This document shows, in pieces, positions 4,387 through 8,081 of a stretch of 64,000 nucleotides of DNA. The stretch is from positions 3,552,001 through 3,616,000 of the forward strand of contig OY970342.1 in the NCBI GenBank assembly GCA_963717505.1. The letters are read 5' to 3'. Numbering within the stretch: position 1 is the stretch's first letter; each line of letters opens with the position of its first letter. Both the position numbers and the translations under genes were made by a program. Source of the DNA: Candidatus Eiseniibacteriota bacterium. GTDB taxonomy: Bacteria > Eisenbacteria > RBG-16-71-46. The notes below the pieces were generated by a model. That model did not search any database and was not told the DNA's origin. It saw only the letters and a list, made by a program, of their open reading frames with translations.

Positions 4387-4446
4387 TCAGATCGAGCAGT
4401 CACTTCTTGCTCTCCCGGAAACCCAGCCCGAGGTAGCCTCCAGCCA

Positions 4447-4617
4447 ATGAGCGCCAAGCGAACCGTTTGGATCGGGGCCATTGTCGGCTCGACAATCGGG
4501 GGCATGATCCCCAGCTTGTGGCATGCCTCGTGGTTGTCGATGTCGAGCATTCTCCTCTCGACGATCGGCGGCATCGCCGGCATATGGCTGGGTTGGAAGA
4601 TTGGCCGCATCACCTGA
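4447..4617 (+). CDS. Small (56 aa) Gly-rich two-helix membrane protein, not in the ORF track
   Basis: Manual translation gives MSAKRTVWIGAIVGSTIGGMIPSLWHASWLSMSSILLSTIGGIAGIWLGWKIGRIT. It has a GAGG upstream and exactly fills the intergenic gap. Confidence 0.7.
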   Translation: MSAKRTVWIGAIVGSTIGGMIPSLWHASWLSMSSILLSTIGGIAGIWLGWKIGRIT

Positions 4618-4646
4618 ACTAGCCTCATCGCGAGGTTCAGACCTGC

Positions 4647-5477
4647 TTACACACCGACGCGTCGCCCAACGAGCGGCTTCGCCACCGCCGCCAGAATCAG
4701 AAGAGCGCCGAATACGCACACCACGCTCGCGCCCGGTGGGGCGCTCAGCCACACCGAGGTCATCATTCCGAGCACGCTGGCCAGCGTCGCCACCGTCCAG
4801 CCGATCGCCAGTCGAATGCCGACCGGCTCCGCGAACAACACGGCGATGACGCTCGGCACGATGAGATAACTGAACACCACCAACACGCCGCCCAGCTCTA
4901 CTGAGGCGGCGACCGTGAGGCCAAAGGTCGCGTAGAAGAGAAAGTCCCAGAGCTTGACGTTGATTCCCCGCGCCTTGGCGGCGACCGGATCCTGCGAGAT
5001 CTGGAGCAACGTCTTACGCCAGGCGACATGCAGCGCCCCGAGGACTACATAGAGGATGGCCAGGCGGAGGACATCCTTGGGGCCCACCGCCAGGAGCTGC
5101 CCGACCAGGACGTCGCGAATGTGCTCGGCCCCGTGCGGCGCGTTGTTGAGGATGAGCACAGTGGCCGCTGCGGCGACGGCGTAGACGATGCCGATGATCG
5201 CCTCCTGCGGGACACGACCCTTTTCCGAGCGAGTCAGCGAGAAGGTGGCCGCACCCAGCGTGGTGAATCCGAGCGCGAACCCGTACGTGCCAGGATCGTG
5301 CGGCTCCCATCCCCACAACGACGCCACCGCCGCACCCATCACCGCCATCTGCGCCAGGGAGAGGTCGACGAAGATGACCTCTCGTTCGACGACGTGGAGT
5401 CCCAGGTAAACGTGAATGCTCGCGATGCACAGCAGGCCGAGCAGCGGCCACAACAGGAATGGCAGCTGCTCCATCAT
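4647..5477 (-). CDS. Metal ABC transporter permease (ABC-3, ZnuB/MntB-like)
   Basis: Motifs HVYLGLHVVEREVIFVDLSLAQ, EAIIGIVY and SVELGGVLVVFSYLIVP, with about 8 TM segments. The start overlaps the SBP stop (ATGA). Confidence 0.9.
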   Translation of the reverse strand: MMEQLPFLLWPLLGLLCIASIHVYLGLHVVEREVIFVDLSLAQMAVMGAAVASLWGWEPHDPGTYGFALGFTTLGAATFSLTRSEKGRVPQEAIIGIVYAVAAAATVLILNNAPHGAEHIRDVLVGQLLAVGPKDVLRLAILYVVLGALHVAWRKTLLQISQDPVAAKARGINVKLWDFLFYATFGLTVAASVELGGVLVVFSYLIVPSVIAVLFAEPVGIRLAIGWTVATLASVLGMMTSVWLSAPPGASVVCVFGALLILAAVAKPLVGRRVGV

Positions 5478-6463
5478 GGCTTGCCACCCTTGAGCGCCTG
5501 GCCAATCAGGGCGAGCTGCCGGTCGAACAGATCGAAATAGGTCTTGATGCCGTCTTCGGCGCCGACCGAGGTCGGTAGCACCACCAACGGCACGCCGGTG
5601 TCGGTTGCGATCTTCTGCGGCAGGCGAGGGTCGAAGAAGTCCTCCATGATCAGCAGCCGGACGCCGCCCTGCTTCATCTGAGCGACCAGGTCCTGGACGT
5701 GGTTGGGCGAGGGTGGAATGCCGGGCCGGGGCTCGACGTAGTTCACGACCTCGAAGCCGAACGCCCGAGCGAAGTAGGACCACGAGCGATGGTAGGTCAC
5801 GACTTTGACGCCGGTGAGTCCAATAGTCTGGGCTTGGGCCTTGAGGCGGGTCGCGGCTTCCCCGACCCGCTTCTCGAAGTCCGCGCAGCGCTGGTTGAAT
5901 AGCGCGGCATCCGAGGGCGATATCCGCAGGAGGCCATCGCGGATGGCGCGGGCGATGCCAATGCCATTCGTGGGATCGAGCCAGTAGTGGGGATTGCCGA
6001 ACGGATGGACGTCGCCGAGCGTTCGACTCACCGAGCTCGGGATCTCGATGATCTCGACCTGACTCGAAGCGTCGACGAAACCCGATCCACCCGTCAAGAT
6101 CTTCGAGTTCCGCGAGCCGCTCAGCAGCCCGGGGACCCAACCGACCTCGAGATCGCGCCCAACCTCGATGAACAAATCCGCTTTCTTGAGCTGCACCATG
6201 TACGAGGGCTTGGCATCCACGAAGTGCGGATCCTGATATCCACGGCAGATCGCGGACACCGCCACCCGATCGCCACCCACCTCGCGCGCGATCGCCGCCA
6301 GGTCTTCGGTGGTCGCCACGACCTGGAGCGGCTTGCTGGCAGCGTCGGCCGTGGCAATGAATGGGATCTGGGCGCCAACGGCCAGCATCGATGCCCAGGC
6401 GAGTGGGAAGGCAAGGCTGCGCACCTGCTGCATCCACGCGCGAGCCGAAGGGATCGAGTTCAT
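5474..6463 (-). CDS. Zn/Mn-type ABC solute-binding protein (ZnuA/MntA/TroA family)
   Basis: Motifs VVATTEDLAAIAREVGG, QDPHFVDAKPS, GDVHPFGNPHYWLDP, VVTYHRSWSYF and EPRPGIPPSP, plus a signal peptide. Confidence 0.92.
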   Translation of the reverse strand: MNSIPSARAWMQQVRSLAFPLAWASMLAVGAQIPFIATADAASKPLQVVATTEDLAAIAREVGGDRVAVSAICRGYQDPHFVDAKPSYMVQLKKADLFIEVGRDLEVGWVPGLLSGSRNSKILTGGSGFVDASSQVEIIEIPSSVSRTLGDVHPFGNPHYWLDPTNGIGIARAIRDGLLRISPSDAALFNQRCADFEKRVGEAATRLKAQAQTIGLTGVKVVTYHRSWSYFARAFGFEVVNYVEPRPGIPPSPNHVQDLVAQMKQGGVRLLIMEDFFDPRLPQKIATDTGVPLVVLPTSVGAEDGIKTYFDLFDRQLALIGQALKGGKP

Positions 6464-6473
6464 GGCAGCTCCG

Positions 6474-7598
6474 TCAGTAGGGGTGTGCGCCGTGCGGGCC
6501 GATGTTGAACGTCCACTTGAAGAACATGGCGTCGTGTTCGCTGTCGTCGAGGGCGTCGCGCACGCGCCGGCCCTGCAGGCTGAGCACCGAGAACTCGCTC
6601 GGCTGGTATTGAAGGAGCGCGAGCGCGCCGCTCACGTGGTCCGGCGCGTCGGGTCGTTCGGTCCAGTCGTATCGCCCACCCACCTTCCACTGGCGCGCAA
6701 ACTGATAGAGCACGTAGCCAAACCAGCCACCCCGACGCTCGGAGTCCTCGCCCGAGCCCTGTTCGCCGAGGAACTCGGCCTGGAGGATCAGGGACCGGTA
6801 GATGCTGCGCCGTGGGTTCTTCCAGCGCAGGATGATGTCGGCACCGCCGAGCTGCGCCCGATTCCCCTCGGGGAGCAGGTCCTCATGGGCGGAAGCATTG
6901 GCGTAGGACATCCCGAGGTTGAGATCGGTGCTCTCGCTGATCGGGACGAATACGCTCGAGCGTCCCACCCACAAGACGTCCGATCGTGAGCGCGACTCGA
7001 ACAGCGGCTGCTCGTCGGGCTCCGGAACCGTGCCGACATTGGCGACCAGGTCCCAATAGAGGTCGAGCGGGTTGGGGATCAGCAGGGACGCCGTGGCGCC
7101 ACTGGTGACCAGACCCTCTTCGCCGAGAAACGCCACGGTCGCGAGGGGACGATCGGCGAAGGGCGTCTCCGGCGGATGCGTGCGATTGAACTTGCCGAGA
7201 TCGGCCCGATACTTCCCGACCTTCGCCTGGCCGCCGCCAGGCAGCGCCAGCCAGGTCAGGTAGCCTTCTTCGACCTCCAGCCCCTCGGGGCCGGCCGACA
7301 GGAAGAAGTCCGCGCGCGTGAACGGGTCCACCGCTGCCTGGAACCCGAGTTCCGCTTCGGGCAGCTCGAAGGGATTCTCCTGGACGGTCGGGTCGTTGCC
7401 TGAGACCGCTTGAAACCAGCCGATCACGCTGATCGCGGGATTGGCGAGCGAGGCGCCGGCGGCGGAGCCGCCGGTCGTCGCGGCGACGTTGGGGTACGAC
7501 GCCGACGGTGCGGCCACAGTGGTGTCAGCAACTTGTCCCTGGGCGACACGCGCCCAGGCCAGCGCAAGCATTACGGCAACCCATGCGAACCGGAGCAT
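6474..7598 (-). CDS. Outer-membrane beta-barrel (porin-like) protein associated with metal uptake
   Basis: Signal peptide, NPAISVIG, EAELGFQAAVDPF, VEEGYLTW, FGKxNxxH-like LGKFNRTH, alternating beta-strands, and His-containing C-terminus FNIGPHGAHPY. RBS AAGGGG. Confidence 0.8.
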   Translation of the reverse strand: MLRFAWVAVMLALAWARVAQGQVADTTVAAPSASYPNVAATTGGSAAGASLANPAISVIGWFQAVSGNDPTVQENPFELPEAELGFQAAVDPFTRADFFLSAGPEGLEVEEGYLTWLALPGGGQAKVGKYRADLGKFNRTHPPETPFADRPLATVAFLGEEGLVTSGATASLLIPNPLDLYWDLVANVGTVPEPDEQPLFESRSRSDVLWVGRSSVFVPISESTDLNLGMSYANASAHEDLLPEGNRAQLGGADIILRWKNPRRSIYRSLILQAEFLGEQGSGEDSERRGGWFGYVLYQFARQWKVGGRYDWTERPDAPDHVSGALALLQYQPSEFSVLSLQGRRVRDALDDSEHDAMFFKWTFNIGPHGAHPY

Positions 7599-7718
7599 CC
7601 GATCGGTCCCCTTTCATGCCCGACGCAAACGGAGCCAATGCGGGCAAGGCGCAGGTCGGCGGGCAGAGTGTCTAGGATTGGCGCCGTTCGGCGCGCCAAG
7701 GCGGGGAAGCGAAGAGTC

Positions 7719-8012
7719 TCAGGCCAGCGGGGGTGCGCGACCTCGGGGAACGGCGGCGGCGATGGAGCGCGGGGTGGTGGGGATTGGGGCGGCCAGGCGT
7801 CTGCTCAGGGACGGGGGAACACCGAGCACGGGGAGAGGTCCGGTTTCCATGGACGTCGAATAAGCCGCCGTGCACACCGCGCAGATGTGGGAGGTGGAGT
7901 CCCCGTGATGCTGGTGTATCCCGATGGCGAGCAGGCCGATGGTCAGCACCAGCCCGACCAAAGGCGAGAGCCACCGAGTGCAGCGCCTGAACGACATGAT
8001 GGATAGGGACAT
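7719..8012 (-). CDS. DUF2946/CruR-like leader protein (TM/signal, HQHH, CxxC, C-terminal RAPP)
   Basis: MSLSIMSFRRCTRWLSPLVGLVLTIGLLAIGIHQHHGDSTSHICAVC…PRGRAPPLA. GAGGT lies 8 nt before the ATG at 8012 (alternative start 7997). Confidence 0.8.
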   Translation of the reverse strand: MSLSIMSFRRCTRWLSPLVGLVLTIGLLAIGIHQHHGDSTSHICAVCTAAYSTSMETGPLPVLGVPPSLSRRLAAPIPTTPRSIAAAVPRGRAPPLA

Positions 8013-8052
8013 GTCTGAATACCTCACGGCTCGGCCCCACCGAGCTTTCGAG

Positions 8053-8081
8053 AGCGTGGCCATTGAGGGAGGGCGTGTCAA
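8053..8081 (-). promoter_or_regulatory. Possible sigma70 promoter for the leader/metal-uptake operon
   Basis: Perfect TTGACA (8081-8076), a 17-nt spacer, and a weak -10 CACGCT. Confidence 0.35.

Follow-up and report, generated by a model that had tools for sequence, protein, structure and literature searches.

A 64,000-nt stretch of the genome of a Candidatus Eiseniibacteriota bacterium (assembly GCA_963717505.1, contig OY970342.1, positions 3,552,001 to 3,616,000; hereafter the window) encodes on its minus strand a 97-aa open reading frame (ORF) followed, after a spacer of 120 nt, by the genes of an outer membrane porin (start codon ATG at 7598), a solute-binding protein (SBP) and a permease. 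There is little doubt that this ORF is a conserved cis-acting arrest leader, and it probably senses a metal. That it operates as a zinc-released arrest switch gating the porin-ZnuA-permease genes, likely through Rho, is slightly favoured; a real, conserved arrest-type leader, forming such a zinc-released switch acting through Rho, is the most likely of the readings considered.

Structure and expression signals of the leader

The original prediction, made from the letters of the window, described an ORF of about 97 aa with a hydrophobic segment, HQHH, H-x-CAVC, a Pro-rich linker and a terminal RGRAPPLA, lying 120 nt upstream of a co-oriented porin-SBP-permease cluster; all of these elements are present at 8012-7719, and the spacer length and strand agree. 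The hydrophobic segment (W14-I32, 7917-7973), preceded by basic residues, is predicted to be an export signal of N-in/C-out orientation, as judged from hydropathy alone (Kyte-Doolittle maximum of 2.7 over 15 residues). It is followed by a predicted metal site, H33-Q-H35-H36 ... H42-x-C44-x-x-C47 (H42-I-C44-A-V-C47 at its end; 7872-7916), by a Pro/Ala/Thr-rich linker of 44 residues, and by the putative arrest motif RAPP (R92-A93-P94-P95, 7728-7739), which stands two residues before the stop codon (RGRAPPLA-stop).

A Shine-Dalgarno-like GAGGT (8020-8024) lies 8 nt 5' of the leader ATG (8012), and 40 nt upstream of the leader there is a promoter-like pair consisting of a predicted -35 box, TTGACA (8076-8081), and a predicted weak -10 box, CACGCT (8053-8058), 17 nt apart. 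A scan of the locus reported no promoter, the pair falling below the threshold of the tool, and no intrinsic terminator; TTGAC followed after 17-18 nt by CA/TA-x-x-CT was repeatedly seen 5' of several related leaders.

Conservation of the leader

Of 60 relatives, 49 proved to encode the porin, and in 48 of these the leader stands before it (43 by profile search, one as an HGPP variant with the same spacing, and four more on inspection), the 49th ending at a contig edge. The survey of RAPP ORFs upstream of homologous porin-SBP-permease loci that the original prediction had called for thus came out in its favour. In 28 aligned leaders C44, C47, R92, P94 and P95 are invariant and H35 is kept in at least 90%, while the sequence of the linker is free to vary. 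The RAPP codons vary synonymously across 33 loci, and selection therefore acts on the peptide. The strict pattern CxxC-x41-46-R[AGS]PP-x1-6-stop has two occurrences in the 4.16-Mb genome when all six frames are read, each of them in front of metal-uptake genes, as against 0, 0 and 1 in three hexamer shuffles of the genome, so that a chance origin can be set aside.

A search for homologues with the leader as a single sequence returned no match but itself, because the family is too divergent for word seeding. A profile search of 1.84 billion proteins gave 2722 matches at E<=0.001, of which the top one was rejected as an unrelated repeat protein. In 149 short representatives the spacing from CxxC to the motif was 43 (n=29), 44 (n=114), 45 (n=5) or 46 (n=1) residues, and the tail after RAPP had two residues in 135, a constancy which partly mirrors the query, since the profile used to pick the representatives already had this layout.

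A scan with the SBP alignment covered 80 loci of at least 599, including at least four duplicates of loci from the relatives already compared; the closest belonged to Candidatus Eisenbacteria, then to Acidobacteriota and Elusimicrobiota. The porin is encoded in 78 of the 80, and four are truncated upstream. A strict leader was found in 46, an RPPP variant in six, and a disrupted or long-tailed form in three; strict and RPPP leaders thus account for 52 of the 74 assessable loci, mostly from other phyla. In a plasmid record of the cultured Sulfurovum mangrovi (L133, 2297-2653), this porin-SBP-permease operon is preceded by a leader variant that has CxxC and HAPP and a linker of greater length. 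At two loci (L023 and L030) the leader is about 620-640 nt from the porin, compared with the usual distance of about 110 nt, and an Acidoferrum locus (L079, 634-957) has such a leader in front of a TolC-like gene, 2 kb upstream of its porin. Contigs aligned to the region matched it in short pieces only.

Downstream operon and its likely cargo

The porin (374 aa, 6474-7598, minus strand) has 16 strands, no plug and porin-like fold matches in the predicted structure (pLDDT 91), which distinguishes it from the 22-stranded barrel with plug domain of a TonB-dependent receptor. It carries an invariant His and a C-terminal GxHxxH, and its homologues bear only 'hypothetical' names. The next gene (5474-6463, minus strand) encodes a cluster A-I SBP of the ZnuA-II/VPA1307-like type (PF01297, E 8e-53) with four invariant His residues, H80, H153, H159 and H225. 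Three of these (H80, H159, H225) align with ligand positions; position 3 is His, while position 4 is Thr/Ser with no Asp. Zinc-type SBPs of cluster A-I have three His ligands and lack the Glu/Asp pair of the PsaA/MntC type. By its sequence, the SBP is therefore of the zinc type, without Mn/Fe-type ligands. Its best solved-structure match reaches 82 bits, far below its match to a Vibrio campbellii homologue. The third gene (4647-5477, minus strand), overlapping the SBP stop codon, encodes an ABC-3 permease of the ZnuB type (PF00950, E 1e-31).

No ATPase gene is found in the cluster after the permease, and the genome has no ZnuC orthologue (the best candidate scores 102 bits against a cut-off of 306). 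A co-oriented ABC ATPase after the permease was seen in none of the 80 scanned loci, within the locus DNA available; one more distant relative has an ATPase gene within the operon. The porin-SBP-permease cluster is the only ZnuA/ABC-3 system of the genome. These ATPase-less SBP and permease genes (4647-6463 and related loci), together with a Vibrio permease that lacks the coupling-helix stretch, hint at an importer which shares an ATPase or does not depend on one. In the gap between the permease gene and a convergent beta-propeller gene (4387-4646) there are two 27-nt imperfect direct repeats 69 nt apart (4479-4505 and 4548-4574); a doubtful ORF on the minus strand would contain them as a repeated MPPIVE.

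All three proteins match those of a three-gene operon of V. campbellii (porin E 4e-21, SBP E 1e-40, permease E 4e-21), which is leaderless and has two Zur-box-type palindromes upstream. Gene order, names and motifs suggest that the V. campbellii genes are orthologues of omr-znuAII-znuBII of Vibrio parahaemolyticus, an operon of the Zur regulon that is 283-1033-fold up under zinc limitation (PMC9817125), and the ZnuA-like VPA1307 of that species supports growth in TPEN (PMC3794297). Boxes resembling the mycobacterial Zur box (compared with that of PMC4298942) are present at two Holophagaceae loci that have no leader, one of them from the cultured Geothrix limicola. Elsewhere in the genome there is a manganese regulator-transporter pair, which from its sequence we take to be MntR-MntH. 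Given the homology to a Zur-type operon, the SBP ligands, the Holophagaceae boxes, the separate MntR-MntH pair and the lack of any other ZnuA/ABC-3 system, zinc is with fair confidence the cargo and the signal metal, and manganese is unlikely. The list of candidate metals in the original prediction (Zn, Ni, Co or Mn) can accordingly be narrowed to zinc as the most likely, manganese being disfavoured by the SBP ligands and by the pair encoded elsewhere.

Spacer RNA and proposed mechanism

The 3' end of the leader and the spacer form a C>G bubble (7620-7860, minus strand; 41-56% C and 21-29% G per 78 nt), a candidate Rho-utilisation region. In the first 60 nt after the leader stop C exceeds G in all 33 loci, with a mean excess of +10 (+13 in the window) compared with +1.5 in 393 control spacers. 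Of 36 loci found, three had been set aside because the start was unclear or the spacer was longer than 600 nt, and the 33 include five leaders before TonB receptors. A gene for Rho is present in the genome, and the bubble makes Rho termination of the CruR kind the somewhat preferred main output.

The 191-nt stretch as a whole folds no better than its shuffles (z +1.12). One of the two hairpins proposed earlier, with 7 bp (7678-7684/7693-7699), is well predicted, having a pair probability of 0.83. The other stem, 7617-7622/7641-7646, is complementary but has a probability of about 0, as 7617-7622 pairs instead with 7660-7665 (probability 0.85) in a longer hairpin (7615-7667) that adjoins the ribosome-binding site (RBS) of the porin; a competing helix of 11/12 bp (7677-7688/7628-7639) falls short of it in stability by 3.4 kcal/mol. 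The RBS itself (GGGGA, 7607-7611) is predicted to be paired in both conformers, and the UUCCCC segment noticed as complementary to it is indeed present and paired in the predicted folds.

By analogy with CruR, the nascent leader would, when zinc is scarce, stall the ribosome at RAPP, with P94 and P95 in the P and A sites, and the downstream porin-ZnuA-permease genes would stay expressed. Binding of zinc to the His/CxxC site would then pull the chain and release the ribosome, upon which Rho would end transcription in the C-rich spacer and switch the operon off. The arrest site, the release by metal-driven folding, the Rho output and the off-when-replete direction are all suggested by that analogy, and zinc as the sensed metal by the operon context. 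With the ribosome so placed, the P site is 47-50 residues away from the cysteines (C47/C44) and 52-61 residues away from the His cluster. A nascent chain enters the translocon environment at a length of about 45 residues, and folding of small cytoplasmic domains takes place at 25-30 (PMC7886326); these distances favour sensing at or beyond the translocon, as in CutF. CruR, however, has an equal spacing and works without its signal peptide (PMC9426467), so that the metal may be met in the cytoplasm as well as at the translocon mouth or in the periplasm, the site assumed in the original prediction.

Alternative explanations

An arrest leader with the same zinc logic might act on translation: as in SecM-secA or CutF-cutO, the parked ribosome would open a helix in which the RBS of the porin is hidden. 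The RBS is predicted to pair with the C/U-rich sequence just after the leader stop, and the footprint of a stalled ribosome lowers the energy of opening it by more than 1 kcal/mol in 14 of the 33 loci as against 19% of 120 controls. However, the footprint makes little difference (a median of 0.7 kcal/mol, and 1.2 for the window), occlusion of the RBS is like that of controls (12.5 vs 11.8 kcal/mol, p 0.12), the RBS is still paired once the footprint is removed, and most spacers, at 90-200 nt, extend past the reach of the footprint. This output is thus rather unlikely, and of the RBS control put forward in the original prediction the pairing stands while its regulatory role is only weakly supported, Rho termination fitting better. 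About as improbable, if marginally less so, is that the leader senses copper, nickel or cobalt and that the operon takes up this metal or more than one: at this spacing CxxC has been proven to be the copper site of CruR, the SBP has one extra invariant His, a NikR gene lies near one related locus, and His-rich CutF-like leaders precede Ni/Co-type HupE/UreJ genes, Ni/Co sensing having been proposed for His-rich RAPP-type leaders (bioRxiv 2022.11.11.516240). The operon, though, contains no copper chaperone, oxidase or OprC-type gene, it is homologous to an operon induced by zinc limitation, and the leader before the efflux-pump genes of this genome shows a different, Cys-pair-rich ligand pattern.

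Another explanation could be that the peptide monitors secretion or thiol redox state, being released by Sec pulling or by oxidation of CxxC and coupling three exported proteins to export capacity, with no direct sensing of metal. RAPP peptides with export signals are established Sec/YidC monitors, RAPP leaders also occur before DsbA/thioredoxin genes (PMC12992588), and C47 stands at translocon distance from the arrest point. Yet the downstream genes encode metal importers and not sec or dsb functions, the His residues are conserved together with the cysteines, and the annotated neighbours of leaders of the same type are always a metal porin or a TonB receptor, with the exception of one TolC-like gene; such a monitor is therefore very unlikely. 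Least credible of all is a small trans-acting membrane protein, a metal chaperone or importer subunit perhaps offsetting the missing ATPase, in which RAPP would be incidental. It would suit the membrane segment, the metal ligands and the co-transcription with an importer that has no ATPase gene, but the linker is kept in length rather than in sequence, RAPP holds its place close to the stop codon in the great majority of the representatives, proteomes avoid RAPP outside such positions (PMC12992588), and ATPase-less operons without a leader exist.

Several points count against the zinc-released switch itself. The stalling and metal binding of this peptide, and its effect on expression, are predicted from sequence and analogy. 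The HMM check suggested in the original prediction gave relatedness to DUF2946 (PF11162), which was matched at E<=1 by 18 of the 28 related leaders (best 3.3e-5), but the leader itself scores 14.7 bits (E 0.055) against a gathering cut-off of 23.7; on sequence it is a relative of this family without formal membership. CxxC is a copper ligand in CruR too, which responds to copper and only moderately to zinc (PMC9426467). No adjacent leader was found in 19 of the 74 assessable SBP-scan loci; several of the 19 stand behind, or opposite to, a gene for a TonB receptor, and the sequence upstream of that gene is not part of the locus. The C>G skew of the coding part is partly driven by amino acids, since avoidance of third-position G in the linker is slight (0.38 at four-fold sites vs 0.42 in gene bodies, lower in 21 of 33 loci), and the p-values overstate significance because the loci are related. 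VPA1307 is presumed to be of the same type as the V. campbellii SBP, and the Holophagaceae boxes come from two kindred loci and are of a Fur-family kind not assignable to Zur from sequence alone. With respect to regulation, the genome is rated 87% complete, so a Zur may have been overlooked; the leader occurs also in relatives that have Fur-family genes; and a supposed Zur gene beside the operon in one relative was rejected, the Fur-family gene being PerR-like. The leader is not a simple Zur replacement, because it is found beside Fur-family genes and because RAPP leaders of the Vibrio ZrgD type stand in a Zur-regulated operon.

Regulatory setting

This genome (a single contig) yielded no Fur-family gene, and neither did 32 of 36 other genomes of the same family (33 of 37 with this one); outside the family, such a gene is present in 19 of 24 genomes. 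The genome encodes two regulators of the DtxR family. Ten of 18 Fur-family proteins from relatives were scanned and proved PerR-, Fur- or Irr-like or unassigned, none of them having Zur as the best match and none reaching the cut-off. A Zur-like box was found neither in the window nor in the genome at <=2 mismatches, and there is no conserved operator upstream of the Eisenbacteria leaders. The leader is thus the sole zinc-linked control element found for this family. Mutual exclusion of leader and Fur-family gene was also considered and rejected, as the four apparently leaderless relatives all have leaders. Since it is present with or without Fur-family genes, the leader is a fixed trait of the class and not a swap.

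Comparison with known leaders

The closest model is CruR of Bordetella pertussis (Bp2923, DUF2946), in which the spacing from CxxC to RAPP is 45 residues, conserved within 1-2 (PMC9426467). In vitro, translation of CruR is arrested at RAPP while the P and A sites hold the two prolines (PMC12992588), and copper releases the arrest, after which Rho terminates before the transporter gene (PMC9426467). Like CruR, the window leader is the first gene of an importer operon in a genome that has Rho, and it possesses an export signal, CxxC, a comparable spacing (44 vs 45), RAPP 2-3 residues before the stop, and a C>G bubble that extends from the end of the leader into the spacer (120 nt vs 162 nt). Unlike CruR (145 aa), it is shorter, has a His cluster beside CxxC and falls below the DUF2946 cut-off; it heads genes of a plug-less porin, a ZnuA-type SBP and a permease in the phylum Eisenbacteria, with zinc as the predicted metal, whereas CruR heads a copper TonB receptor in Bordetella. 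The downstream genes therefore differ from the copper-homeostasis genes of the CruR setting. CutF of Rhodobacter capsulatus (bioRxiv 10.1101/2022.11.11.516240 and 10.1101/2025.02.05.636593) is likewise an exported nascent peptide with Cys ligands, a C-terminal proline motif and cis control of the next gene, but it has CxxxC in place of CxxC, is stalled rather than released by copper, and activates a detoxifying oxidase instead of an importer; it does so by opening a stem-loop over the RBS, for which the support is weak in the window leader. The Sec/YidC monitors ApdA, ApdP, ApcA and SecM share the C-terminal RAPP/RAGP and the N-terminal export signal (PMC12992588), but they have no metal site and head sec/yidC genes, upstream of which the window leader does not lie.

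Among zinc systems, omr-znuAII-znuBII (VP_RS21430-21420) has the same porin-SBP-permease order and is also listed without an ATPase (PMC9817125, PMC3794297), the SBP motifs being shared by the V. campbellii homologue. It differs in being Zur-controlled; the V. campbellii operon is leaderless, and a cytoplasmic coupling-helix stretch kept by the window permease is missing from its permease.

RAPP leaders are already in print across many phyla, also outside the Proteobacteria (PMC12992588). Of the original prediction, a CruR/CutF-like arrest leader gating a metal importer is supported by the conserved transmembrane (TM) segment, His cluster, CxxC, 44-residue spacing and RAPP, but its occurrence outside the Proteobacteria is not new. 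The source data of that paper list, uninterpreted, RAPP leaders before this porin annotation and before ZrgA, which like the window leader are about 95-130 aa long, possess TM, His/CxxC and a RAPP close to the C terminus, and precede a zinc-uptake gene by about 100 nt. Among the rows listed, at least nine have the receptor annotation, and DUF2796 has at least 137 RAPP vs 2 AAPP leaders. The words 'zinc' and 'DUF2796' are absent from the accessible main text, and no Eisenbacteria entry is found among the source-data rows listed, although the porin/ZnuA context may be listed elsewhere in the supplement. No experimentally tested zinc-sensing arrest leader was found in the literature searched, most subscription papers lying outside the search. 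In Vibrio, ZrgD (DUF2607, described as of function unknown) is a His-rich ORF ending in RAPP that heads the Zur-regulated zrg zinc operon (PMC12992588, PMC9817125), and it is likely a second family of zinc-linked arrest leaders in cultured bacteria. DUF2607 is not among the 13 Pfam families matched by any of the 28 leaders at E<=1.

Other leader-like ORFs in the genome

The second strict leader of the genome (3671385-3671810, minus strand; L001), with His-His, an extra Cys and CxxC-44-RAPP, heads two TonB-dependent receptors, the first of which has ZnuD as its best solved relative (E 5e-22) and is below all NCBIfam cut-offs. A Cys-pair-rich leader ending in RAPPRS (about 1784100-1784600, minus strand) precedes TolC-like and membrane-fusion genes. 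A His-rich, membrane-targeted ORF ending in APKHSPPTA (1296877-1297368, plus strand; L032, 6878-7369) lies behind a heme oxygenase gene and is followed just by a 17-codon ORF; from its sequence it looks like a leader that lost its target gene. The palindrome upstream of the heme oxygenase gene may be a DtxR-type site, which it resembles.

Significance

Only copper cases among metal-responsive leaders of the CruR kind have been tested so far, and Roy et al. stated that no riboswitch is known for copper or zinc and suggested that protein-based leaders fill this gap. A wider proposal, which is tentative and on balance doubtful, is that the leader is a zinc-sensing arrest peptide at the Sec translocon mouth, the sole dedicated regulator of zinc uptake in a lineage largely without Fur/Zur, controlling a His-gated porin and an ATPase-less importer, and that the same class heads, unrecognised, zinc operons in Acidobacteriota, Elusimicrobiota and Vibrio (ZrgD). 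The surprise is limited, because earlier publications describe this class of mechanism and its spread over many phyla. A switch demonstrated so far for copper alone is likely extended here to zinc, in a bacterium in which the standard zinc repressor was not detected. If true, a zinc-released arrest peptide would add a post-transcriptional zinc sensor, His vs Cys ligands would tune one nascent-chain scaffold to different metals, and the control of zinc uptake in bacteria without a detectable Zur would be explained.

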